Source: Chiloscyllium plagiosum (Eukaryota). From it: a stretch of DNA of 63,904 bases. Under the pieces are notes generated by a model. The model ran no database searches. It worked only from the letters and a program-made list of their open reading frames with translations, and had not been told where the DNA came from. A program made the translations under genes and the position numbers. The DNA lies in NCBI RefSeq assembly GCF_004010195.1, contig NC_057740.1, positions 31,563,257 through 31,627,160 on the forward strand, read 5' to 3'. Numbering within the stretch: the stretch's first letter is position 1; each line of letters begins with the position of its first letter. Shown here piece by piece: positions 6,766 to 59,548 of this stretch.

Positions 6766-6979
6766 TTCACATTGGACCATGGTGCTTTGGTTCTATTTGG
6801 AGGGTGGATGGGCATAATGAATCCTCTGGTGACAGCAGGTTGTGTACAGAAATTGTTCTTTTAACAAAAAAAAGATTAATTTCCTTACGTTTGCCCACAA
6901 TGACCTTATGTTACGACAGGCTGATAGATGTGTCAATCATCCAAGTACTAATGGTACAAATTGAAAACACTTGAAACCT

Positions 6980-8340
6980 CTTATGCTGGGCAAGCTTTTG
7001 GAGAGAATCCTGAGGGATAGGATGTACATGTATTTGGAAAGGCAAGGACTGATTAGGGACAGTCAACATGGCTTTGTGCGTGGGAAATCATGTCTCACAA
7101 ACTTGATTGAGTTTTTTGAAGAAGTAACAGAGAGGATTGATGAGGGCAGAGCAGTAAATGTGATCTATATGGACTTCAGTAAGGCGTTCGACAAGGTTTC
7201 CCATGGGAGACTGATTAGCAAGGTTAGATTCCACAGAGTACAGGGAGAACTAGCCATTTGGATACAAAACTGGTTCAAAGGTAGAAGACAGGGGGTGGTG
7301 GTGGAGGGTTGTTTTTCAGACTGGAGGCCTGTGACCAATGGAGTGCCACAAGGATCGGTGCTGCGCTCTCTACTTTTTGTCATTTACACAAATGATTTAG
7401 ATGCAAGCATAAGAGGTACAGATAATAAGTTTGCAGATGACACCAAAATTGGAGGTGTAGTTGACAGCGAAGAGGGTTACCTCAGATTACAACAGGATCT
7501 TGACCAGATGGGCCAATGGGCTGAGAAGTGGCAGACGGAGTTTAAATCACATAAATGCGAGGTGCTGCATTTTTGGAAACCAAATCTTAGCAGGACTTAT
7601 ACACTTAATGGTAAGGTCCTAGGAAGTGTTGCTGAGCAAAGAGACCTTGGAGTGCAGGTTCATAGCTCCTTGAAAGTGGAGTCACAGGTAGATAGGGTAG
7701 TGAAGCATTTGGTATGCTTTCTTTTATTGGTCAGAGTTGGAAGGTCATGTTGTGGCTGTACAGGACATTGGTTAGGCCACTGTTGGAATATTGCATGCAG
7801 TTCTGGTCTCCTTCCTATCGGAAAGATGTTGTGAAACTTGAAAGGGTTCAGAAAAGATTTACATGAATGTTGCCAGGGTTGGAGGATTTTGAGCTAGAGG
7901 GAGAGGCTGAACAGGCTGGGGTTGTTTTCCCTGGAGCGTCGGAGGCTGAGGGGTGACCTTATAGAGGTTTACAAAATTATGAGGGGCATGGATAGGGTAA
8001 ATAGGCAAAGTCTTTTCCCTGGGGTGGGGGAGTCCAGAACTAGAGGGCATAGGTTTAGGGTGAGAGGGGAAAGATATAAAAGAGACCTAAGGGGCAACTT
8101 TTTCACACTGAAGGTGGTATGTGTATGGAATGAGCTACCAGAGGAAGTGGTGGAGGCTGGTTCAATTGCAACATTTAAGAGACATTTGGATGGGTTTATG
8201 AATAGGAAGGGTTTGGAGGGATATGGGCCGGTGCTGGCAGGTGGGACTAGATTAGGTTGGGATATCTAGTCGCCATGGATGGGTTGGACCGAAGGGTCTG
8301 TTTCCATGCTGTACATCTCTGTGACTCTATGACTCTATGA
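6980..8340 (+). mobile_element. CR1 (HER1-like) LINE, 5'-truncated, RT pseudogene plus 3' UTR
   Basis: ORF 6971-7834 has QHGF..GKSCLTNL, YMDFSKAFDKV, GVPQGSVL and KFADDTK. ORF 7922-8269 continues in another frame. Ends in (CTATGACT)n. Confidence 0.97.
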
Positions 8341-11584: not shown

Positions 11585-12150
11585 AAGAACTACAAATACT
11601 GGAAATCAGAAACAAAAACAGAAATTGCTGGAAAAGCTCAGCAGGTCCGGCAGCTTCTGTGGAGAGGAATCAGAGTTAATGTTTCGGTTCGAGTGACACT
11701 TCTTCAGAACTGATGGTAGCTGGGGAAAGGTTGGTTTACATGCAGATGATAGGGGGCAGGGAGGGAGTAAGTAGCAAACAATAGGTGGGGATAGAGCCCA
11801 AAGAGAGAGAACAACAGCTCGACAGACAAAGGAATGGATAACAATCAGCCTAGGAAAATGAACAGCTACAAATTAATGGCTAACAATCAATTGTGTGTGT
11901 CATAGCAGACCAAGGAGATAACAAGGAGAAAGTGAGGACTGCAGATGCTGGAGATCAGAGTCAAAAAATGTGGCACTGGAAAAGCACAGCAGGTCAGGCA
12001 GCATCTGAGGAGCAGGAGAGTTGACTCACTTTTTGAAGTGATAACAAGGCCTGGTGTGTGGGGGTTGGGGTCAGGACATGGGAGAAGAAGCTTCAAGCCC
12101 TAAAATCGTTGAAGTCAATATTGAGCCCAGACCACTGTAGAGTTCCCAAG
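11585..12150 (-). mobile_element. Penelope-like element 3' end, family B (GIY-YIG C-terminus plus pLTR with hammerhead)
   Basis: Minus strand ends ...LGTLQWSGLNIDFNDFRA*. Hammerhead at 11674-11711 reads (rc) AGTT-CTGAAGA-AGTGTCACTCGAACC-GAAACATT-AACT. Confidence 0.85.
11927..12039 (-). mobile_element. Family A PLE fragment nested in family B
   Basis: Family-A tail flanked by direct repeat GATAACAAGG (11917-11926 / 12040-12049). Confidence 0.85.
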
Positions 12151-14480: not shown

Positions 14481-16289
14481 GTAGATACTATTCCACTAGT
14501 ACTAGCCACTGGTGCATAGCCAATATTAATTGTTTTCTTGGCAATGTTTAAGAATGTGTATTTTCCAATGATAGACAGTGGGCAGCAATCATGAGCAGAA
14601 TGCTTATTCTAGCTGAGGCACAGAAAACCATTTGTATCTCTCAATTTGATTCCTTGTCTGAGGTCAGCCAACTGAACAAAGACTGGGAACCTGGGGCTTC
14701 TATTATTGCTCTACAACTCACTGGCATTATTAACTGAACCACCAGTTAGAACAGAATCCTTTTCAGGCAACAACAATCAAACCTGTGTGGTGTTTTACCC
14801 GTCCTGCAAATCAACAGATTCCCAGGTACAGTAAGCCTTTAAATGCAGTGTCTAATTCAAACTGTTCACATTTATTCATTCATCTTTAAAGACAATCAAC
14901 TGTGAAAATGTTAAAACTGGAGTTTTTGGCAGACACACAAGACCAAGCTGCAGCTAGAATTAGTCAACTGACTCACCTATGTTCATTCATGGCTGCTGTT
15001 ATAACAGGTCACGCTAACCCAACCACAGGGTCATGCACACATCAACTCATAATCATAAATTCCTTGTTAGTATAAACACACAATAATAATTTGTGTTACT
15101 GGCTTGTAAGATGTTAAAGTGTGCAAGATTTACAGCATTTATAGTTTCTCACAGGGATGGGCTGACCTTATTTCCCCACAATTGGCAATCTATGCCTAAA
15201 CAACAAGCAAGCACAGCCAATACGATAAGGGCAAGCTGCAGACAACCAGACAATTTTGGCTCCTGTTGAAATTGTTGTTGGCTGCAGGAGTTAAAGCAGA
15301 GAATTGTTGGGATTCAACCAAGTAACATGTGATTCCCCACAGCCAAGGTCTTCTTCAGCTAAGTGTGAAGGCCACCCAGCAGGATAAGGGATTGTGATGT
15401 CAATCTCCTCAACACCTTTCCTCTTCTGTTACTAGCCAAAACAACTGACAATATGACAAGGGTATTGTAACTGAAACTGGGCACACCCCTTCCAATCAAA
15501 ATACGAAGATAGCTATCTCTTTCATAGCTCCAGTTATCAAGGCACAACGAGTGAGCTGCCCATTGGAAAACACTTTGAAGCTAAACACTGGAATGTTTCC
15601 AAAGTAGCCATTATGTTAATTCCCTTCCAGCCAAAGAAAGCTGGTATCTCTATTGTTAATTCTGTTCGGTCAACACAGACAGTATTTGTGTAAGCGCTAC
15701 AGACCTAATCCCATTTATGGCTTTTATATTTTAGGCATTTTTCAGCCTTTAACAACCTCCCAACTATTAAATGTGCTATCTTCAAACGTTTGTTGCACAA
15801 TACTCCAGATCAGAGCGTTGATGTGGTTGGCTGCTCCTGTACATTTTCAGGTTTCTACTCACTTTGATTTCAATAATGCGAAGGTCAAGCATATTCTGAA
15901 TCCAGTGATTCACATTCCACCAGAAAACCCATTTATTTTTCCCAAGGGGACCAGAAATATGATGGAAGCCCTCATACTGTGGAACGTAGATAATAAGGAC
16001 ACTCTGTATTCAGTGCAAACCACTTCCCTGACCTTGCACAAATAAGCCATAAAACCATAGAAAATAGGAACAGTGCCTCAAGCTTGCTCCACCACTCAAT
16101 AGGATCATGGCTGATCCAATGTACTCCTCATGTCCACTCTCCTGCCTTTTCCCTATACATAGGACCATAAGATGGTGGGAATATTTTGGTCACTAGAAGT
16201 ATTTGGATAAAGACTTCCCATTCGGCTGCAGCCTCCAAAGATTTCCAAGTGAGAGACCAATGCTTTTTGATAATAGACTTCTAAGATTG

Positions 16290-16493
16290 GAATCTAGAGT
16301 GTGGTGTTGGAAAAGCATAGCCAATCAGGCAGAATCTGAGGAGCAGGAGAATCCACATTTTGGGCATAAGCCCTTCATCGTATACCCGAAACATCAATTC
16401 TCCTGCTCCTCAGATGCTGCTTGACCGGCTATGTTTTTCCAGCACCACAACTCTCCACTCTGATCTCCAGCATCTGTAATCCTCACTTTCTTT
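16290..16493. mobile_element. Family A head-to-head fold-back pair
   Basis: Minus copy ends at 16379, GTATA filler, plus copy starts at 16385. TSD TTCTAAGATTG at 16279-16289 / 16494-16504. Confidence 0.9.
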
Positions 16494-16869
16494 TTCTAAG
16501 ATTGAAATGTCTATCTGAAGCACAATCAGTTATTGCCCTGGATTGATGAATTTGAAACAAGCTGCCAGATGAAGTGGTTTTGCGTTCTCCTTAACTCCCC
16601 TAAGAACCTGCTGCCTTCATTTCAATGCCAGATGCATATTGACTGTGAGTAGTGACCGGGCTTTCCTGGGCCTACAGGAAAAAGGAATGCATTATTCAAG
16701 ACCATATATCACTGAATCGGTGGAGTTCAGATTGTTGAAGAAGATTGTTTCATATTTGCTCTTGGGAAGGAGTAACTAGGCAACACTCAATGCCAAGGGA
16801 TTTCACAATCCCATTAGACCTTAGGGAAAACATAAAAACACTGGCATTAGCATGGGAACAGTAAGATAG

Positions 16870-19070: not shown

Positions 19071-19902
19071 TATGCACCATCTTGGCATTTACTCAATATT
19101 TGAAATGCTGGCTCTTTAATGGCCAGCAGATTGTGCATTCTAGCTGGGAGATGTTTTTAAAAGTGTTTTCATAGGAAGCTTGGAAGACTACTTTGCACTG
19201 AATGTATTTCACCCATTGGCAATGTTTGTCTTTGATTCAAAATCTATGCCAAGTTTACATTTGGCTTCACATTGATGCATGTTGTTTACATTTCATTAGT
19301 AGTGAGAGCAAGGAATCAAGTTAGCCAGTTCCAAATCCAGGCTCACAGATGAAAATGCCTCATAAAATATCCCAGACATGTAAAACACAAAAGCTAGCTG
19401 GATCCAAAGAACATGCAAGAGAAGTGATGTCAGACCCCTGCAGAGCACCGGACCATGTGTCACAACATCACTGAAGGACTTCCTCAGTGAAATCCTTGGT
19501 CTAAACATCTTCCTTAATGACTTTTTGTACAATCAAAGACATGGAAAGGGCTTTTCCCAGACCATTCCACAATGTTTAACTCATTCAGAACACTAATGAC
19601 CACTGCAGTACCACCCATGAATGGAACTGGACAGAACTCCATACGAAAAAAGCCACATAGAAAATAGGAATGGTATAGGCTATTCGGCCCCTCAAGCCTG
19701 CTCCACCATTCAACAGGAACAAGGCTGACCTGCCCCAGTTTTCAACGACAACTCTTCATTCATGCGACATAGCCCTCAACTTCCTGATATTTCAAAAATC
19801 TATGTACCTCAACTTCAAAGGAGGCCAAAATTGTACACAGTACTCTTGGTGCGACCTCACCAACACCCTGTCGGGTTGTAATAAGGCTTCCCCATTTTCA
19901 AA

Positions 19903-20655: not shown

Positions 20656-21076
20656 AAAAATTGCCATGCTTTGCCCGCTCACTCAACTTATTTATATCTC
20701 CTTGCAGATTCCATATATCTTCATCACAACATCCCTTCCAACTATTTTTCTAGGGTCAGCAAATTTGGATACATTATACTCCATCCCCTCCTCCATTTCA
20801 TTAATACAGTGATAATAATAGAGCAAACAACTGAGCCCCTGGGACTGATCCTTGGGGAACTCCACTAGTTATTTTATTACAACCTAAAAAAGACCATTTA
20901 TCCTGATTCTTTCACTTCTATCTGTTAACAAATCCTCAATCCATTCTGATACATTATCCAAGGCCATGACCTCCAAATTTGTGCAATGATCTTTTCTATG
21001 GCACCTTTGAAAGTCTAAGATACTGTACATCTTCCAGTTCCACTTTATTAACGCTACTTGTTACATCCTCAAAGAT

Positions 21077-21167
21077 GGGAATGTGTTGCTGGAAAAGCGC
21101 AGCAGGTCAGGCAGCATCCAGGGAACAGGAGAATCGACGTTTCGGGCATAAGCCCTTCTTCAGGAAG
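21077..21167 (-). mobile_element. Family A mini-insertion (91 bp)
   Basis: TSD ATCCTCAAAGAT at 21065-21076 / 21168-21179. Confidence 0.92.
21132..21166 (-). ncRNA. Minimal hammerhead ribozyme motif, intact core
   Basis: Reverse complement reads TTC-CTGAAGA-A-GGGC TTAT GCCC-GAAA-C-GTC-GATT. Stem I is weak. Confidence 0.7.
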
Positions 21168-21741
21168 ATCCTCAAAGATCCCTAGCAAACTTGTAAAACA
21201 TGCCTCACCTTTCACAAAACCATATTGATCCTGATTGTGATACATTATTCTAAATTCCCAGCTATTGCTTTTTTAATAATAGATCCTTTGTTAATCATAG
21301 GTAGTTCATCCATTTCACAGAGTTGTCTTTTTTGACCAGAATAAGTTTTTGCTGCACTTTATGAAATATCTGGTTGTTTGCCATTGATTTTCCCCTTAGT
21401 TTATTTTCCCATCCCACTTTAGCAACTTTTTCTTCATATTTCTGTCATTGTCCTTATCTAAGTTGAGAGCATTGATTTGAGACCTGAGTTGCTCTTTAAC
21501 AAATTGAATTTGAAACTCTACTATGTTGAGATGGCTACTTCCTAGCGGGTCCTTCACTGAGATCTCTTATTAATTCTACCATAATCCAGTCGGTTAATGT
21601 TACAATGTTATACTCTGCAGATCACGACTGTAACCTAAGCCGCTCTACAACACTTAAAGTCTGCTTAAATATGGAAGGATGAGATGACAAAGTAACACCA
21701 GAGTGGATGTACATTTGCTTGCTGGGCTGGAAGGTTTGTTT

Positions 21742-21781: not shown

Positions 21782-22254
21782 GCCTCTGGTGAAGCTCTGG
21801 TGGTATGGCCTACTTTTTATTTATGTGCTTACGATTCCTTGAGTTGGCGATGTCATTTCCTGTGATGATGTCATTTCCTGTTATTTTTCTCAGGGGTTGG
21901 CAAATGGGATCCAAGTTAATGCTTCTAGGAATTCTCATGCATGTCTCTGTTTGGCTTGACCTAGGATGGATGTGTTGTCCCAGTCAAAATGGTGTCCTTC
22001 CTCATCTGTATGTAAAGATACTTGTGAGAGTGAGTTATGTCTTTTTGTGGTTAGTTGATGTTCATGTATCCTGGTGGTTAGTTTTCTGCCTGTTTGTCCA
22101 ATGGGGTGTTTGTTATAGTTCTTGCAAGGTATTTTGTAAATGACATTAGCTTTGCTTGTTGTCTGTGTAGGGTCTTTCAAGTTCATGAGCTGCTATTTTA
22201 GTGTATTAGTGGGTTTGTGGGCTACCATGCCAAGAGGTCTGAGTGGTCTGGCAG

Positions 22255-23990
22255 GTAGCAACACTTACCAACAAGTGGCGATAGATCTGACCCCACAACT
22301 AGAGAAACGAAACACAGCCCTTCTCAAAAAACTTCAGAGATCTGGAGAAATAAATAAGACTGACTTCCAAACAATGAAACCAGACAGATCCGACTCACCA
22401 CGTTTCTATGGATTAACCAAAATTCACAAACCAGGAGCCCCCCTCAGACCCATAGTCTCACTACCTGGAACACCAACTTACAGATCGGCCAAGGAGCGAC
22501 ACCAAAGACTAAAACATTTAGTAGAAGACTCACACCACTCCATCCACTCCACCCAAGAATTCCTGAAGACCATCAAAGACTCCAAGATAGAAGAGGATGA
22601 AATAATGGTCTCCTTTGATGTAACAGCCCTGTGCACATCCATCAACATCAACCTGGCCAAGGAAACACTGATTACCCTATTAGAAGAACCAAAGACACAT
22701 ACACCAAACACCACCAACTTCATCAGCAAGGACAGTATTGTCAAGCTAGTGGACCTATGCCCCACTACCCACTCCACCTTCAACAACAAAACCTACAGAC
22801 AAACCAACAGAACACCCATGGGATCACCGATATCAGGGTTCTTAGCAGAGGCAGTAATGCAGAGACTCAAACAAACAGCTCTACCAACCATCTAACCTAA
22901 ATCTTGGGTCAGCTACGTGGATAACACCTTAGTCATCACTAAACGAGACAAATCAGAGGAAACCTTCAAGACCATCAACAATATGGTTATTGGCATAAAA
23001 TTCACTAAAGAGGAAGAAAACAACAACAAACTGCCATTCCTAGATGTCACAGTACAGCGAACAGCCAATGGGGAATTTCAAACCAGCGTCTACAGGAAAA
23101 CAACACATAAGGACCAAATATTGAACTACAGAAGCAATCATCCCAATGCCCACAAACGAAGTTGCATTAGAACATTATTTCAATGAGCCACCACACATTG
23201 CAGCACACAGGAACTACAAAGAGCAGAGGAAAATCACTTTTACAGTGTATTCAAAAAGAACGGGTACCCAATGAACACAGTCCACCGATTTCTCAACAAC
23301 AAACCCAAACAAGCAGACAAAACATGTCCAGAAACCCTAGCCACTCTCCCCTACATCAAAGACATCTCAGAAATGACTGCCAGGCTACTCAGACCTCTTG
23401 GCATCATGGTAGCCCACAACCCAACCAACACACTAAAACAGCAGCTAATGAACTTGAAAGACCCTATACAGAAAAACAAGCAAAACTAATGTCATTTACA
23501 AAATAACTTGCAAGAACTGTAACAAACACTACGTTGGACAAACAGGCAGAAAACTAGCCACCAGGATACATGAACATCAACTAGCCACAAAAAGACATGA
23601 ACCACTCTCACTAGTATCTTTACATACAGATGAGGAAGGTATGGAATGAGCTGCCAGAGGATGTGGTGGAGGCTGGTACAATTGCAACATTTAAGAGGCA
23701 TTTGGATGGGTATATGAATACGAAGGGTTTGGAGGGATATGGGCTGGGTGCTGGCAGGTGGGACTATATTGGGTTGGGATATCTGGTCGGCATGGACGGG
23801 TTGGACCGATGGGTCTGTTTCCATGCTGTACATCTCTATGACTCGATGACTGGGACAACACATCCATCCTTGGACAAGTCAAACAGAGACACACATGAGA
23901 ATTCCCAGAAGCATGGCATTTCAACCGGAACTCTATCAACAAACACATTGACTTGGATCTCATTTACCACCCCCTGAGAAAAAGAACCAG
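22255..23990 (+). pseudogene. PLE reverse transcriptase / GIY-YIG endonuclease, disrupted
   Basis: PRFYGLTKIHKPGAPLRPIVS, SFDVTAL, PMGSPIS, YVDN, LPFLDV, YRKTTH, NHPNAHK and VIYKI..C..YVGQTGRKL..RIHEH, with stops and frameshifts. Confidence 0.95.
23639..23851 (+). mobile_element. CR1 3' end inserted in the PLE GIY-YIG domain
   Basis: VWNELPEDVVEAGTIATFKRHLD and ctatgactcgatgact tail. Absent from the inverted arm. Confidence 0.95.
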
Positions 23991-24630: not shown

Positions 24631-25022
24631 TAAGCCAGTGTTAGCTACTGAACATCTCTATCAAGAGACTGCCTAGCTTTCACCATCATTAAATTCTCCA
24701 CAACTATCCAACTATAATTAGATAGAAGGTAAATCAATCTAAAAGAGCAGAAGGGAGACCAGTTACTTGAGTTGTTCTCCTCTACATCCTTTAATAACTC
24801 CTCACCATCTGCAATTTATGCTCAATTTATCTGACCAGGCACAGTTACATCTCTGAAGAAGCTTGGCATGATTGAGCAGATCGTTTGATTGCTCCCTGGT
24901 GATTTGGCAAGATGTCACTTCATTCCACCATTAGTGAACCAATGCTGTAGTATGTGACCTACAGGATGCACTATAGCATCTCATTTAGATTATCTCGACA
25001 ACACCAATTGCCTCTGCAAGTT

Positions 25023-25054
25023 CTGAAGAAGGGCATGTGCCCGAAACGTCGAAT
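25023..25054 (+). ncRNA. Minimal hammerhead motif, intact core
   Basis: CTGAAGA-A-GGGC ATGT GCCC-GAAA-C-GTC-GAAT. Confidence 0.7.
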
Positions 25055-25110
25055 CTTCTGTTCCCTAGATGCTGCCTGACCTGCTGTGCTGTTCCAGCAA
25101 TAAAGTTTCA
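25025..25110 (+). mobile_element. Family A mini-insertion (86 bp), young subtype with AATAAA
   Basis: Perfect 14-bp TSD CCTCTGCAAGTTCT at 25011-25024 / 25111-25124. Confidence 0.95.
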
Positions 25111-25654
25111 CCTCTGCAAGTTCTACCAACTTGAATAAATAAAGCACAAACTATGAGAACACAATTAGCTTCTTTAAGGCATGCAATGATTGCTAAGCCA
25201 TTGATATCATTGGCTCAAGAGCCTGCAAGTCCAGAGCCACAGCATTATAGGAGCACCAGTTGCAGATGCACTGTAGAAGTTCAAGGATAAAGTTCACCAT
25301 CAATCCACTCAGAGAAGCTAAGACAATCAAAGGCAACATTGGCAAATGGACCCCTCCTGAAAACAAAATTTTAAAGGCTGCTTATCAACTCTAGTTTTTC
25401 TTTTCCTCTTATTTTACATAGGACATTCCTCAAGATATTTGAAGAATCCTTTTCATTGCTACCACAGTGAAGGAGCAGAAAGTATTTGGGGCTAGGTGGT
25501 GCCATATACTATTCAAAAGAATAACAAATATCAGGCAGCAAGCTGCAAGCTCTAATTCAAGCTCATGGCTCTGTTAGTCTTCATCAACTGCTCAAGATTC
25601 TTCCTCGTGTTTCATTATGCTATTTGAATCGTTCAATTGAATTACAGCCTCACA

Positions 25655-36215: not shown

Positions 36216-37179
36216 TAACTAAAATACAGCTGCACAAAGCTGCAAGTTGCCTTACCACAACAATTTTAATGGTGCTGTTTACCTGCTTTTGAAATGGGAT
36301 CATGCATATGTTAAAATAGTGCTGGGGTGTATTTATCAGGAGTCTTTTAAGTGTATTTGAAACTTCTTGGCATTTCGTTTTGGTAAAAGCACTTCCAATA
36401 TGTCTTTCCCATTTGGTAGATTCACGATGGGGTTGCCAGCTGTGGGACAGATTTTATAATTGCATTATCAGCCGTGCAGAGTCTTAGCACTTATTGAGTG
36501 TCAGAATTCAGGCCCTCATTTTGACCAACTCAGACAAGACTCCAAGCACGATTATGGTCTCAATAGCTTATTTTATAGAGGGACCTGCTGCCAACATATG
36601 ACTTTCTAATCTTGCCACAAGAGATTGTGATGACTTCCAGGAAAACCACAATGAAAAGGTACATTTTCTATTTAACTCTATTCGTAGGTTCTATAGAACA
36701 TGATAATCCCTTTTTATTGGAAGAGGCTCACTTTGTGAAGTATAAAGAGAACATTGTGTCATCTCCTGTTTCATTTCAAGCATACGCAATGTTTTCTGAT
36801 CGACAAGCTGCTATCTCATTTCATCAGAGTTCATACAGTTCATGCTGCAACATTTGTGACCGATTCTTAAGCATTGTTTTGCGAGAGGACATTCACATCC
36901 TACAATCAAGCTCAATTTGTCCCATTTAATTCACCCTCCCCCAGTCTGTTCTTACACCAGTGCACTGTTTGGTACAGGCTAGATGAGACTTCATCAGAGA
37001 AGCCACCCATGCAGGGGATTAGGCAAATTGAATGTCAATTCATTTGGGTCATCATCCTCCTATATCAATGCACCTACAGCTGGGGTCATGGGATAGAAGG
37101 AGCATGACTCCGTTTTCACCTAGAAGAACAATTGAGGTAGATGGGAATATGAAATATCAAACACAAATGGATCAGCCAT

Positions 37180-37278
37180 GAAACAAAAGCAGAAATTGCA
37201 GAAGAAACTCAGCAGCTCTGGCAGTATCTGAGGAGGGAAAACAAAGTCAATGTTTCAGGTCCAGTGACCCCTCTTCAT
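37180..37278 (-). mobile_element. Family B pLTR fragment, decayed hammerhead
   Basis: Homologous to 11605-11710. Reverse complement reads TGAAGAGGGGTCACTGGACCTGAAACATTGACT. Confidence 0.75.
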
Positions 37279-37895
37279 TGAATTTCAAAACTGGCATGAA
37301 AAATGGTCTACTTCTGCTCCTACTTCATATATATTTATGTCTGAATAGCCTGTTGTATTTGTTCCTGCTGAGAACAACTAGGCTTGAACATAAAGCCAGT
37401 GTTGTAGGCTGGAATGACCTTGAAAATTGTCTCACATTAACACATTACCCTCTTTTTGAAGTAATGACCAACAAAGTAAGCAAGTGCCCAACACTTTGTG
37501 TCCCGGTCCATTGTCAGCCTGAGGGCTGAGCTAGCTTTGGCTTCCAAGACCTTTGTTGAAGTCATTGTCCTTGCCTAGTCCCACTTGATCCTCCATAGCC
37601 CTGCGAGTTTACTTCCTTCAAGTGACTGTCCAATATCCTTTTAAAATCATTGATTGTTTCAATATCCATCCTCGTCAGCACAGAGATCCAATTTATTATC
37701 ACACGCAACAATGGAAGTTTCTTCCTCATTTTCCTCCCTCCAATTTTTACCCCAAATTTAAAATCTGTCCTTCTTTCATCAATTAATGGGAAAAGTTTTT
37801 CCCTGCCTACCTTACCTAATTGTATAATAATTTTGTAGTTGAAACTTTATTGCTGGAACAGCACAGCAGGTCAGGCAGCATCCAGGGAACAGGAG

Positions 37896-37931
37896 ATTCG
37901 ACGTTTCGGGCACAGGCCCTTCTTCAGGAAT
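37896..37931 (-). ncRNA. Minimal type-I hammerhead ribozyme, mirror copy
   Basis: Exact reverse complement of 38114-38149. Confidence 0.8.
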
Positions 37932-38113
37932 GAGCAGAGAGTGTTCAGCAGGAGAAGATAAAAGGTAGGGAGGAGGGACTTGGAGGAGGGGCGTTGGAAA
38001 TGTGATAGGTGCAAAGAGGTCTTGACCTCTTTCCACCTATCACATTTCCAACGCCCCTCCTCCAAGTCCCTCCTCCCTACCTTTTATCTTCTCCTGCTGA
38101 ACACTCTCTGCTC

Positions 38114-38149
38114 ATTCCTGAAGAAGGGCCTGTGCCCGAAACGTCGAAT
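38114..38149 (+). ncRNA. Minimal type-I hammerhead ribozyme, fully intact
   Basis: ATTC-CTGAAGA-A-GGGC CTGT GCCC-GAAA-C-GTC|GAAT. Stem I is ATTC/GAAT, stem III is palindromic ACGT, predicted cleavage after 38145. Confidence 0.8.
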
Positions 38150-38659
38150 CTCCTGTTCCCTGGATGCTGCCTGACCTGCTGTGCTGTTCCAGCAATAAAG
38201 TTTCAACTTTGATATCCAAATGAATCCAACAAGAACTGGACCAAGCATATGTGGTACTCATAATCTTCTTCATCCTAAGTATACGCATGATTTTACTACA
38301 ACTGCTAAGTATTTCATCAGTAATATTTTCAGCAACATAACACAAAACATCGCAGATAAGAAAAACTGCAGCATATTAACATGCCAAATTTCCCCTAAAG
38401 TAAATGCATTAAAATTCCATCAAATTTGACAATATTGTTATGTATTTGGCTTTAAGGGGTTAACACGTAGGGGGTTCCATACAACAGCCAAGCAGGGTGA
38501 GATCAATAGTTGTGATGTTGAGAAGATATGCTCTTCTTCATTAGGGTAAATAAAACCACAGAAAGTAGACAAAATCAAACACAAAATATTGCTGAGGAAA
38601 GGAGTGAACAAAGACAGAAATGGGAACTATTTAAATGTAAATCTATGATTTGTTGTACG

Positions 38660-38810
38660 TATTTTGAACTGGTCCTCCTGGGAGCAGATGCGGTGGAGAC
38701 GAAGGAATTGGGAGAATGGGATGGCGTTTTTACAGGGGGCAGGATGGGAGGAGGTGTAGTCCAGGTAGCTGTGGGAGTCGGTTGGTTTGTAGTAGATGTC
38801 CGTGTTAATA
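38660..38810 (-). mobile_element. PLE RT thumb-region fragment
   Basis: INTDIYYKPTDSHSYLDYTSSHPAPCKNAIPFSQFLRLHRICSQEDQF. Confidence 0.9.
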
Positions 38811-39689
38811 ATTTTGTACACTAGCTCTAACAAATCAGCCCTTCCAGATCATTTACACCTAGGATACCTTTCCAGTGTAATGTTGTAACAAATCATTTCC
38901 CTTCCATCGGATCTATTCCGGTAAATCACCACTGCATCGTCTGGAGAACCTTCACCTTTCTAACATGTGATGACAAGAATCAATGTAAAACCTAACTTCC
39001 CTGCTTTCATAACAATTTATGAAGCACTGGACCCCATGTGCTTTCCTTCTCAATGTTTTATATACACGTCTCTCAATATCTGGTATTTATGTAGAATAAG
39101 TGAAAGAAGCTCTTATACACATGCAACAGTTGCACTTTGACCCCGTCCTACTGCTCTGAGTGTCAAGAATTGGCTCACCAGTCTGCTTTACCTCCTTAAT
39201 TGCAATCAGCCCCTTTCCCCAACTTGGGACTTTGACAATTACATTGTCTGTTTAGCTAAGCAATTCCTCCCACCCCCCACACCCCCCACCCCCCAGCTGC
39301 CTTGAATGAAAACCATTGTAGCATAAAGATGTAAGCAGTTCTGGAATGTGTTTGATGTCCTCTATTGTCTCAGAACTAATATGACACATGAGAATACATA
39401 CATTTTTAATAGCTGCTTTAGGTATTCCAGCTAATTACCTCCAACAACTTCCCAGGCAGGTTGTGTCTCTTTGGAAATGAATCCTTTGTTGACTAACTCT
39501 AAAAGCTGAATATAAATTAAACCATAATCCTGTCCAGGCTTGCAAATGAAATCCTACTGGACGAATGTGTCACAGTGACAGCAACGATCGTACAATATCG
39601 TATGATAAAACCTACAGTGACCTTGCGTTATTTCTTAATTCAGGAAGAGAAGTTTGAATTTATAAAGCACCCTTTCAGAACTGTAGAAA

Positions 39690-43585: not shown

Positions 43586-43922
43586 AAAAATTTCCTCCCT
43601 ACAACCTTTCTCTCTCTCTAGCTTTGATACTCTCCTTAAGATCTATCTCACACAATAAAAAACTTTAGCTGACATCTCATCATGTGGCTCAGTTTTAAGG
43701 TTTGTCTGATAACACCCCCTTGAAGCTCTGTGTGACATTTTGTTACATGAAAGGCAATGTAGGTATTTTCTATTGAACCTGTTCAGAGATAGTCTGATAC
43801 ATCTATGGAGCATGGAGAACTTGAAACCAGGCCTCTTGGCTCAGAAATAGAGACACTACCACAGCCCTCTGTTGTGTAATTACATATAGTGATATTGGTA
43901 ACATGTTGAGTCTGGATTACAA

Positions 43923-44081
43923 TAGGGAGAAAGTGAGGACTGCAGATGTTGGAGATCAGAGTCGAGAGTGGGGTGCTGGCCTTTCATCAGGAGTAATGCA
44001 GGGCTTATGCCTGAAACATAAATTCTCCTGCTCCTCGGATGCTGCCTGACCTGCTGTGCTTTTCCATCACCACACTCTCCA
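43923..44081. mobile_element. Family A head-to-head fold-back pair
   Basis: Minus arm (internally deleted) ends TCATCAGGA at about 43992 and the plus arm starts at about 43994. TSD CTGGATTACAA at 43912-43922 / 44082-44092. Confidence 0.9.
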
Positions 44082-44589
44082 CTGGATTACAACAGCTGGT
44101 TAGCAATCAGTTTACATTTTGTTTGCATGGGATTTGGTTTTGTGAGGATTGGGTGGGAAGTAAGAAGAAGGATTTGTTTTTCACTGCTTCTATAACAGGA
44201 TCCGTTCCCCCAACCCTTTCATTGCTGTCTAAGACAGGCAGCCTGGGTAACCCTTAACATAAAGAATGGACACTTTGTCAGGAAAAAAGGATGGACACAC
44301 ATATAATGCTGGCACTCCATTCACTCCTTTTAGAAAATTGCTTATAATACTTCGATCCAAAATCACAGAACTGTACAACCGAAACAAGATACAAGTCTGA
44401 TGAGAGCGAAAACCCACATTCCCATTTTCACCTTGTACTTTACATTTAGAATAGGGAGAGTCGGAGTGTTGTCAATCACTTAATTTAACAGTGACTCATT
44501 TCAAATAATGTACAACACTTACAAGCTTACATGCCTATATACAGTATACACATACACTAATAACCCAATACATCCACAGGCATACCTGC

Positions 44590-45115: not shown

Positions 45116-45352
45116 CTGTTGTACGATGTAATGCTTCTGAAAGAGTTAGTGTTGAATTAGCATTGAGCTCCATCCAATCTTACATTGTTGTGTAGGGAGA
45201 ATTGAGCAGACTAACCTGAGGTCCCAATGGACAGAGTCATCTCTGGCTCATGATTGTCATTATGTCTTGCTAGCCCAATGTAATTTGCATCAAAGCTATC
45301 ATTTAATAAATTACATCTTGTTATGTAAGAAAGATGCCTCTCTTCATTAAAA

Positions 45353-45882
45353 TCTTTGAGGAGAAAGTGAGGACTGCAGATGCTGGAGATCAGAGCTGAA
45401 AATGTGTTGCNNNCTGAGACAAGGTGGGGGAGGGGAAATGAGGAAACTGGAGAAATCTGAGTTCATCCCTTGTGGTTGGAGGGTTCCTAGGCGGAAGATG
45501 AGGCGCTCTTCCTCCAGCCGTCGTGTTGCTATGGTCTGGCGATGGAGGAGTCCAAGGACCTGCATGTCCTTGGTGGAGTGGGAGGGGGAGTTGAAGTGTT
45601 GAGCCAAGGGTTGGTTGGGTTGGTTGGTCCGAGTGTCCCAGAGGTGTTCTTCCTGACCTCTCCGTCCCCACCCCCACTCCGGCCTATCACCCTCACCTTG
45701 ACCTCCTTCCACCTATCGCATTTCCAATGCCCCTCCCCCAAGTCCCTCCTCCCTACCTTTTATCTTAGCCTGCTGGACACACTTTCTTCATTCCTGAAGA
45801 AGGGCTCATGCCTGAAACGTCGATTCTCCTGCTCCCTGGATGCTGCCTGACCTGCTGCGCTTTTCCAGCAACACATTTTCAG
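45353..45882. mobile_element. Family A PLE: minus arm with GIY-YIG C-terminus (contains NNN gap) plus plus-strand pLTR
   Basis: Minus strand reads LAQHFNSPSHSTKDMQVLGLLH...LEEERLIFRLGTLQPQGMNSDF. Plus-arm hammerhead at 45790-45825. TSD CTCTCTTC(A/G)TTAAAA at 45338-45352 / 45883-45897. Confidence 0.92.
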
Positions 45883-46042
45883 CTCTCTTCGTTAAAACTC
45901 AATAGTCATTTTCCTAGCACTGTTAATTGGATATCCCTTAGACTCATTGCAGGTGGATTACGGATTTTGTGCCAGGAGCTCTGCGTTCAATTTGTATTTG
46001 CTCAGATATATAACAATATCTCTGAACAGTTGGTTATAAAAT

Positions 46043-47500: not shown

Positions 47501-48140
47501 CATGTATGATATAAGAACACATAACTATTCATTAAGAAAAGCAATGCACGAACACAATTTTTGCAGTTCTGAAAGAATATTTTTGCGAACTAACCACTAT
47601 GCAGTTCATTTAAATTTCCATTTCTGCCTGTAAATATTATAACAATGCAAACATAATTTTAAGATATGACCTTGCAAGTTTACAATAGAAGCAGGATCTT
47701 TCATTTTGTGTTCAATTAGTTGTGGAAGGCACCCAGTTGCAGGAGTGGAATGCCTTGACTGAGACTGTTGGCAGGAGAATCACAGATTCCGGGATCCTGC
47801 CATTAACAGTCTGGCAGCTAAAGTGCATCACTCAATATATTCCTTTTCTGTGGTTGATTTAAATTGAGCCAGCACTGCTGGTGTGCTTCAAGGAGTGCTG
47901 ATTTAAATAGGTAAATTGATTAGGTTGTGGCTGATCTATTGCATGTTGATTAAATCTGTTCACCAAGCAGTGGGGAGACTTTGGTGAACACATGTCAGTT
48001 CATAACAACTGAGGAAAAGATAAAGCAAATTCAGGTACAAATAGGATTAACTACTTCATCCTTGGAGCTATTGATGTCTAAAATAGGTTGATAACCTGGC
48101 ACAGTGAAGATACAACAAGGAAGGTATAAAAGAGATTATG

Positions 48141-48334
48141 GTTTAGATCAGAGTGGTGCTGGAAAAGCTCAGCAGGTCAGAGAGCATCCGAGGAGCATGA
48201 AAATCGACAGGAACAGCTTTTGCCTGAAATGTCGATTTTCCTGCTCCACGGATGCTGCCTGACCTGCTGTGTTTTTCCAGCACCACTCTGATCTAAACTC
48301 TAGTTTCCAGCATCTGCAGTCCTCACTTTTACCC
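48141..48334. mobile_element. Family A head-to-head fold-back pair
   Basis: Minus arm ends at GAC (rc GTC) 48208 and the plus arm starts in stem II at about 48216. Perfect 15-bp TSD ATAAAAGAGATTATG at 48126-48140 / 48335-48349. Confidence 0.93.
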
Positions 48335-48619
48335 ATAAAAGAGATTATGACAGCTCACAACTGGAAAAGCCCATTGCAGTCCAACTAACAGGTAGGTCCA
48401 TATGACCCGCAGCCATTATATCCAACATTAGCTCTTCCAAAGAGTCAGAGACATCTCCAGCACAAAAATGGCCCTTTGGCATATCGAGTCTGTGCCAACC
48501 AAAAGCAACCACCTGGATATTCTTCCACAAGTGCAGATCTAAATACTGCCTAGCAGTTAAGGGGTTCTGCCTCGACCACCCTTACAGGCAGTGAGTTCCA
48601 GATTCCCACTTAAGAGGAA

Positions 48620-52964: not shown

Positions 52965-53013
52965 GAGTGTGTATTTTACTGTTGTCATTGTAACAACAGT
53001 AAAATACACACTC
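52965..53013. repeat. Perfect 21-bp inverted repeat with 7-nt loop
   Basis: GAGTGTGTATTTTACTGTTGT-cattgta-ACAACAGTAAAATACACACTC. Confidence 0.9.
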
Positions 53014-56749: not shown

Positions 56750-57520
56750 TAGGCTCAAGGGATCAAAGGGAATCAGTGGTAGACACTCCTCTGTGGAGAC
56801 ATACCTGACACATTGGAAGATGGTCGTGATTGTTGGAAGTCAATTATCTCAGCTCTAGTACATCTCTGTGGGAATTCATCAGGATAGTGTACTAGGCCCA
56901 ACTATCTTCAGTTGTGTCATCAATGACCTTTGCTCTATCATAAGGACAGAAGTTGAGTTGTTTGCTGATGATTGCTCAATCTTCAGCACCATTTGTGACT
57001 CCTTAGATACTGAAGCAGTCCATGTTCAAATGCAACAAGATCTGGACAATAGCCAGGCTTGGGCTGACAAGTGGCAAGTAACATCGCACCAGGCTATGAC
57101 CATCAAATGCCAGGCTATGTCCATGACCAATAAGAGACAATATAACCACCATCCCTAGATATTAAGTAGTGTAACCATCACTGAACTCCCCATTATTAAC
57201 ATCCTGGGGGTATCATTGACCAGAAACTCAACTGGACTCATTATATAATAATATTGGCCACAAGAAAGGTCAGAAACTAGGAATACTGCGGTGAGTAACT
57301 CATTACCTGATTCTCCAAAGCCTGTCCACCACCTGTAAGGCACAAGTCAGGAGCATGATGGAATACTCCCCACTTTTGAAAATATATCACTGCTCCTTCA
57401 CTGTCACCGAGTCAAAATAAGGACTTTGTAGGTGTACCTACAGCACATGGACTGCAGCAGTTCTCAGAGGCAACTAGGAATAAGCAATAAATGTTGGTTA
57501 ACTTGTAATGCACAAGTGGA
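56750..57520 (+). mobile_element. L2-type LINE RT fragment plus 3' end
   Basis: GIHQDSVLGPTIFSCVINDL...LFADDC...QQDLDNSQAWADKWQV, followed by the 3' region shared with 5505-6070. Confidence 0.9.
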
Positions 57521-58639: not shown

Positions 58640-59548
58640 GTTAGAACATAGAACATAGAACAATACAGCGCAGAACAGGCCCTTCGGCCCTCGATGTTGT
58701 GCCGACCTGTGAACTATTCTCAGCTCGTCCCCCTACACTATTCCATCATAATCCATGTGCTTATCTAAGGATTGTTTAAATCTCCCTAAAGTGGCTGAGT
58801 TGACTACGTTAGCAGGTAGGTTATTCCATGCCCTTACCACTCTCTGTGTAAAGAACCTGCCTCTGACATCTGTCTTAAATCTATCACCCTGCAATTTGTA
58901 GTCATGCTTCCTTGTACAAGCTGACGTCATCATCCTAGGAAAAAGACTTTCACTGTCTACCCTATCTAATCCACTGATCATCTTGTATGTCTCTATCAAA
59001 TCCCCTCTTAGCCTTCGTCTTGCCAATGAGAACAGGTTCAAGTTCCCCTCTTGAATCCCCTCTTAGCCTTTCCTCATAAGACCTTCCCTCCAGACCAGGC
59101 AACATCCTGGTAAATCTCCTCTGCACCTTTTCCAATGCTTTCACATCCTTCCCAAAATATGGGGACCAGAACTGTACACAATATTCCAAGTGTGGCCGCA
59201 CCAGCATTTTGTATAGTTGCAGCATGATATTGCAGCTCCGGAACGCAATCCCTCTACGAATGAAACCTAACACACCGTATGCCTTCATAACAGCACTATC
59301 CACCTGGGTGGCAACTTTCAGGGATCTATGTACATGGACTCCAAGATCCCTCTGTACATCCACACTATCAAGAATCTTTCCATTGACCCAGTACTCTGCC
59401 TTCCTGTTATTCTTCCCAAAGTGCATCACCTCACATTTAGCTGCATTGAACTCCATTTGCCATTTCTCAGCCTAATTCTGCAATTTATCCAAGTCCCCCT
59501 GCAACCTGTAACATTCGTCCAAACTGTCCACTACTCCACCGTCTTTAG
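58640..59548 (-). mobile_element. CR1 LINE 3' fragment
   Basis: ORFs 58962-59456 and 58733-59041 (MEFNAAKCEVMHFG..., RPHLEYCVQFWSP, WNNLP) and (agaacat)n tail. Confidence 0.96.

Follow-up and report, generated by a model that had tools for sequence, protein, structure and literature searches.

A near-perfect 372-bp palindrome in the genome of Chiloscyllium plagiosum, probably a young head-to-head insertion of a Penelope-like element

Structure of the palindrome

Within the 63,904-nucleotide stretch of Chiloscyllium plagiosum DNA analysed here (the window), positions 37837-38208 form a 372-bp palindrome composed of two 185-bp arms (37837-38021 and 38024-38208) and a TT spacer at 38022-38023. 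These coordinates bear out the original prediction, made from the letters alone, of a near-perfect palindrome with 185-bp arms, a 2-nt spacer, one mismatch and unique flanks. The sole mismatch sets C at 38012 against C at 38033, the tenth pair counted from the centre; a mismatch 10 bp off the centre has a chance of about 5%, and we draw no evidence of selection from its position. The flanks are mutually unrelated and match none of the other repeats in the 64-kb window. With spacers of up to 30 allowed, no other inverted repeat in the window has an exact arm above 21 bp, the next-longest having 21-bp arms, and the palindrome lies far beyond chance.

The arms are family sequence at their edges as well as in their interior (Table 1). 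The spacer C38021-T-T continues the family sequence, as seen in the copy at 45697 and in loose ends at 38021, which carry the upstream family sequence ...ACCCTCAC. On the outer side the family sequence runs on for at least 4 bases beyond the right mirror arm (TTGA, to 38212), and the right arm terminus, ...CAACTTTGA, is like that of the solo copies at 19898 and 21069. Up to 38218, 9 of 10 bases match the family tail; the right arm may extend to that position, or the target may carry microhomology there. Since both the spacer and the right-arm overrun are family sequence, the arms are nested rather than equal copies, the left lying inside the right at both ends. The left arm carries the derived base at 38012, a site at which G accounts for 95-99.9% of contig depth and for 53 of 53 RNA reads.

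Neither arm carries a tail, which is 30-40 bp in known Penelope-like elements (PLEs). There is no TSD at the palindrome: the best match between the flanks scores 5, a value reached by 81% of 400 random pairs, in keeping with the earlier remark that none was convincing. The AATAAA that had been pointed out near each outer end is present, as sequence of the family (subfamily).

Table 1. Coordinates of the palindrome, its motifs and related copies in the window
Feature	Position	Strand	Remarks
Left arm, assigned as 5'-truncated PLE 3' end (pLTR)	37837..38021	-	spans -93 to +92 relative to hammerhead C3; tail-less
Right arm, assigned as 3' end of the same PLE family	38021..38212	+	spans -96 to about +96 relative to hammerhead C3
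Junction C-TT-G, 2-nt loop of family sequence	38021..38024	.	C38021 fits both arms (1-bp microhomology)
AATAAA	38194-38199; mirror 37846-37851	+; mirror -	subfamily sequence, present in the solo copy at 25023
Minimal type I hammerhead motif	38114..38149	+	CUGAAGA at 38118, extra A, helix II GGGC/GCCC, GAAA-C-GUC (C17 = 38145)
Mirror copy of the minimal hammerhead motif	37896..37931	-	
Older sister pair	16279..16508	.	arms 80% identical (67/84), staggered; one arm tailed; 15-bp TSD
Older sister pair	43912..44095	.	tailed arm internally deleted; 14-bp TSD
Sister head-to-head unit	45338..45897	.	15-bp TSD; long minus arm with tail; short plus arm 45652-45886
C-terminus of PLE GIY-YIG ORF	45416-45652	-	inside the long arm of the 45.6-kb sister unit
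Older sister pair	48126..48349	.	arms 91% identical (63/69); one arm tailed; 15-bp TSD

The arms belong to a family of Penelope-like elements

A search of the window with pieces of the family returned 15 loci, five of which are head-to-head pairs, namely the palindrome and those at about 16.3, 44.0, 45.6 and 48.2 kb. In the 45.6-kb pair, the plus arm agrees with the palindrome arm at 88% identity across 187 bases, and the long arm contains the end of an ORF. This ORF end matches proteins of Chiloscyllium punctatum and Rhincodon typus at 64-89% identity (E 1.8e-26 to 1.6e-20; 6 hits among 30 candidates), hits that mark the host as shark-like, and the fragment has 554 relatives at E up to 0.001. 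Pfam analysis of three of the matching shark proteins identified GIY-YIG in all three, in one above the curated cut-off, and RVT_1 in two, below the cut-off. A CX4CxxC linker is recognisable by eye in two of the three, as a feature of those proteins and not of the window. Such a motif between the RT and the endonuclease is described as a tie to Neptune and Nematis, with the form CX2-5CxxC in Neptune (PMC8557442). Judged by their sequence, the palindrome arms are the 3' UTR/pLTR of an endonuclease-bearing PLE, by a UTR-ORF link that crosses the NNN at 45411-45413 yet stays within one TSD-bound unit. The element is probably a member of the Neptune clade, an assignment that draws on the linker rather than on an RT tree. 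The family is very abundant, with contig depth rising from about 16 on the unique flank to millions on the arm, figures that express depth and not copy number.

The 3' ends of 18 family arms, read off alignments, fall into nine with a tail (about +117 to +125) and nine without (about +90 to +96). In each of the four sister pairs one arm is tailed and the other tail-less, and each is bounded by a TSD of 14-15 bp, with a score reached by one of 400 random pairs. Three sister pairs have nested arms and one, at 16.3 kb, is staggered; the arms of the 44.0- and 45.6-kb pairs overlap by just 20 bases in one case and 19 in the other. Six solo copies were tested for a TSD, which measured 14 bp in two and 12 bp in one and was not found in the remaining three.

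Several smaller observations concern individual copies. The 5' ends of the 18 arms lie mostly at about -2 to +26 of hammerhead C3, with two solo copies, the 45.6-kb pair and the palindrome as the only ones to extend farther upstream. About 60 bases (+12 to +71) are missing from the tailed arm of the 44-kb pair, 43926-43995, and these are the part mirrored in the other arm; the deletion may have been palindrome-driven. In several copies, at 25011-25124, 21063-21179 and 45883-45897, the initial bases of the TSD double as family 3'-end sequence (CCTCTG, ATCTTTGA and CTCT are examples), an overlap that hints at microhomology at priming, unlike in the in vitro work on the anole element discussed below. 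A divergent older copy on the minus strand at 11707 has a longer helix II, with 16 bases between the core halves, and probably represents another subfamily. None of the five tandem repeats recorded in the window comes from the PLE family of the palindrome.

This family layout bears directly on two other classes of element. Long terminal inverted repeats would give a MITE, or another derivative of a DNA transposon, the same palindromic shape, and the resemblance ends there. Most copies of the family are solo and 5'-truncated, the centres vary between pairs, the two outer ends of the palindrome differ and the family sequence adjoins an ORF of RT/GIY-YIG type. We find no fixed element with identical termini, a constant centre and a short TSD of fixed length, and consider such an origin to be extremely unlikely. 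Non-LTR retrozymes (bioRxiv 10.64898/2026.07.22.740005) are, as their description has it, non-coding and PLE-derived and carry a type I hammerhead, as does the palindrome. They are, however, head-to-tail tandems with two motifs on one strand, whereas the palindrome is arranged head-to-head with one motif per strand. We rejected this identity, as no tandem of the head-to-tail kind with at least two motifs on the same strand is present.

Minimal hammerhead motifs in the two arms

The hammerhead motif in each arm has the full conserved core, an extra A after A9, a 4-bp helix II with G10.1-C11.1 and a 4-bp helix I, while helix III is absent and a palindromic ACGU stands in its place. The claim that an intact hammerhead lies on each strand thus holds for the core, helix II and helix I and fails for helix III, and Rfam finds no hammerhead. 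Rfam returned no match at gathering score in the whole window, and none to a hammerhead at E up to 10 on 37700-38350. The 60 sub-gathering matches in the latter interval, nearly all to microRNA hairpin models, fit the duplex shape and were rejected. The missing stable helix III and the lack of an Rfam match do not fit a canonical, monomer-active hammerhead.

The motif is a minimal hammerhead (min-HHR) of the kind described in metazoan PLEs (Cervera and De la Pena 2014, PMC4209133), with which it shares the core, the extra base, helix I and ACGU. Each feature of that class is found here, from the core, the extra base after A9 and G10.1-C11.1 to the short helix I, the palindromic 15.2-16.2 and the absence of helix III. 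The 4-bp helix II differs from the 7-8 bp of the Schistosoma motifs. According to the same source, a single min-HHR shows no cleavage and dimers cleave at a low level; dual min-HHRs 100-700 bp apart on opposite strands are also already noted there. In the palindrome the motifs lie on opposite strands, so one transcript of it holds only one.

The predicted probability of helix II is 0.99 for the isolated motif and 0.92 within a single arm, and drops to 0.0 when the full palindrome is folded. A single arm is predicted to fold no better than its shuffles (z 0.42), and in energy co-folding the dimeric hammerhead is not the best structure. These values agree with the proposal that a read-through duplex would mask its own ribozyme, although a min-HHR is not expected to cleave as a monomer in any case. 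The hammerhead motifs of the palindrome are best regarded as passengers that, on these models, would not cleave. In the anole element the ribozyme is reported to depend on protein, and insertion in vitro can proceed without the ribozyme (PMC11167929).

Transcription and the possibility of a hairpin-RNA locus

The predicted read-through transcript would form a 185-bp duplex (MFE -390.7 kcal/mol), with the antisense arm first on either strand. This could suit a functional hairpin-RNA locus, from which endo-siRNAs or edited RNA would silence the PLE family. We found 940 reads, all on family sequence and in both orientations, in a sample of about 2% of a single-cell poly(A) run. The same small sample, which has little power in this respect, contained no RNA reads on the unique flanks, and none of its 53 reads at 38012 carried the locus letter C. 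Pfam was run on 383 of the 389 ORFs of at least 55 aa in the window, the remaining six being covered by five larger ORFs and overlapping frames. It detected no host exon at this length, which short exons would escape, and its hits were limited to RT, GIY-YIG and two weak matches. The latter, HisKA_4TM (E 0.0035) and DUF3615 (E 0.0087), are below the cut-off and were rejected. Furthermore, the palindrome is lineage-specific, and it is one locus within a very abundant family that is rich in inverted pairs, to which one young locus would add little. A silencing function for the locus is, on these grounds, highly improbable.

Age and reality of the insertion

Four of 24 sequencing runs were aligned to 36600-38055, an interval that takes in the left flank, the left arm and the centre and stops 32 bases into the right arm. 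In a second sample of organism A, one contig covers 37239-37859 with two differences and enters the arm by 23 nt at a depth of 16, as for a single locus. Its 23-base overlap with the arm is below the 31-base bar for bridging, as expected at the edge of a high-copy repeat, and the sample comes from the study of the best-matching sample and is perhaps not independent. A run of a third sample, from another study, has a hole at about 37712-37824, beside the left junction. No contig or read among the best-supported matches to 36600-38055 crosses the centre of the palindrome.

The related organism B provides an indication of age. A 4735-nt contig of this organism tracks the left flank as far as 37837, differing at 46 of 1238 positions (3.7% divergence), and continues for 3066 nt past 37837 without the arm, which suggests an empty orthologous site. 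Were the insertion as old as the split between A and B, about 6.9 arm mismatches would be expected, and the probability of one or fewer is 0.008. The arm letters at four subfamily sites make up 17-86% of depth in A and 1-8% in B contigs, and are thus 3- to 70-fold rarer in B. The missing arm in B, this probability and the rarity of the subfamily letters support the earlier suggestion of a very young insertion, whose youth explains the near-identity of the arms.

The alternative offered with that suggestion was that the arms are being homogenised, in which case template switching or gene conversion would have preserved the identity of an older inverted pair. Inverted repeats are known to undergo such homogenisation (PMC8604942) and a 2-nt spacer favours hairpins (PMC7999016), with instability reported to rise generally with longer arms and shorter spacers (PMC7999016). 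Organism B, however, lacks the arm at this locus and the subfamily has expanded in A, and two sister pairs have decayed to 80% and 91% identity, which makes decay the rule. Homogenisation is not needed to account for the palindrome, and we judge it very unlikely.

A further explanation is that the palindrome is in part or in whole an artefact, be it a real pair homogenised by collapse or polishing, a lost loop, or two loci joined through the repeat. The 45.6-kb sister has NNN where an inverted duplicate is expected, so that assembly appears shaky at such hairpins; the one mismatch of the palindrome lies within a k-mer of the unique centre, and that centre is unseen among the best-supported independent matches. 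Set against these points, the flanks are not mirrored as they would be in a fold-back chimera, the left junction is present in the second sample at single-locus depth, family sequence and a stereotyped 3' end are recognisable in the spacer and right end, and the four TSD-flanked pairs demonstrate that the head-to-head layout is biological in this genome. We therefore consider an artefact unlikely. The palindrome is real in the assembly and probably so in the animal, the support from the second sample being at the left junction alone. As a separate observation, 45411-45413 are the only Ns of the window and stand where some 200 or more bases of inverted UTR and hammerhead of the 45.6-kb pair belong; the assembly may drop hairpin arms.

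Comparison with known insertions and a proposed mechanism

The closest described counterparts of the palindrome are insertions of endonuclease-bearing PLEs with an inverted pLTR (Arkhipova et al. 2013, PMC3846280; Craig et al. 2021, PMC8557442). Such insertions share with the palindrome their head-to-head 5'-truncated 3' ends, a palindromic junction, a pLTR hammerhead and arms of about 200 bp, and a TSD-less inverted case has likewise been reported. Adjacent inverted 5'-truncated copies with one-sided tails are described in these sources, and self-priming is proposed (PMC8557442; PMC3846280). Here we find an RT and C-terminal GIY-YIG in one ORF (indirectly, through the shark proteins), a pLTR hammerhead and an adjoining inverted copy. 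The palindrome differs in consisting of two pLTR stubs alone around a 2-base loop, with neither a 30-40-bp tail, which is optional in print, nor a TSD, which is usual but not universal. It is a young example of a described insertion layout, unusual only in its symmetry, and this known inverted-pLTR layout is the main point that the original prediction had missed. Short, 5'-truncated new PLE insertions are also described elsewhere, in a paper whose available text is silent on inversions (PMC9977147). Our literature search, outside which most subscription papers lay, found no description of palindromes in shark PLEs.

Most likely, a single recent retrotransposition of an endonuclease-bearing PLE, probably Neptune, left two head-to-head 5'-truncated 3' ends. 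To the identity of the arms, the layout of the family, the missing TSD and tail and the absence of the arm in a related species, all of which are observed, we add the following priming steps, which we infer. A break in AT-rich DNA would have served to prime reverse transcription, which would have used the inner of the two start sites of the family and halted about 95 bases upstream of the hammerhead. The new cDNA might then have folded back on the C:G pair around the 2-base loop and copied itself, followed by end-joining to the other flank with loss of the TSD, a course to which we give slightly better than an even chance. The other course, which falls somewhat short of even, is that the opposite side of the break primed a second cDNA, which was joined to the first via the 1-base microhomology.

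An instructive comparison for these steps is Poseidon of Anolis carolinensis (PAc; Frangieh et al. 2024, PMC11167929), for which two internal RT start sites are reported to define the tail. The target of PAc is AT-rich, and both strands are cut and extended (PMC11167929). PAc belongs to a different clade, whereas the shark relatives carry a linker of Neptune/Nematis type, and the available text of the study leaves inverted copies unexplained (PMC11167929). The division of the 3' ends in our family into nine tailed and nine tail-less is what a pair of RT start sites like that of the anole element would predict.

The sister pairs fit priming from both ends of a staggered cut, in which each end would use one start site and the cDNAs would be joined mid-way. 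Two-ended priming is favoured by the ability of the anole protein to cut and extend both strands, and by the staggered pair at 16.3 kb, which is beyond what simple fold-back can give. The palindrome departs jointly from its sisters in three respects, as it has no TSD, no tail and a 2-base loop situated a long way upstream of the region near the hammerhead in which truncation usually falls. Fold-back is favoured by the nesting of the left arm at both ends, the 2-nt loop and the lack of both TSD and tail. These traits hint, for this one locus, that fold-back fits the palindrome slightly better than priming from two ends.

More speculatively, and with more doubt than conviction, two separable inversion routes could operate in shark PLEs: a common two-ended route with a 14-15-bp TSD, a tail on one arm and offset centres, and a rarer fold-back route with nested arms and neither TSD nor tail. 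If this were true, the palindrome would be a fresh footprint of the fold-back route, and the origin of inverted pLTRs could be settled by counting in the genome. The single locus matters little, being a dead insertion of a described type that is probably neutral. It is of use as a fresh footprint of how inverted PLE copies arise, and this genome holds many pairs of different ages, five of them in the 64-kb window. Persisting in a vertebrate genome, a 372-bp palindrome with almost no spacer can also serve as a marker for the rate at which palindromes decay, and as a warning for assemblies.

Other elements in the window

A second Penelope-like ORF, of another family, lies broken on the plus strand at 22140-23646 (RVT_1 E 0.0034, GIY-YIG E 1.3e-5), split by repeats. 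The minus strand of 38630-38820, 420 bases to the right of the palindrome, holds a fragment like the RT thumb region of the shark proteins (DIYYKPTDSHSYLDY...), apparently a separate old insertion. The exact inverted repeat at 52965-53013, with 21-bp arms and a 7-base spacer, is outside the PLE family of the palindrome. Fragments of LINE-type RT, putatively CR1/L2, lie at 6965-8269, 56859-57155 and 58962-59471 (RVT_1 E 4e-25 and 4e-5), and their dispersed 3' ends probably account for many of the long-range inverted matches in the window.
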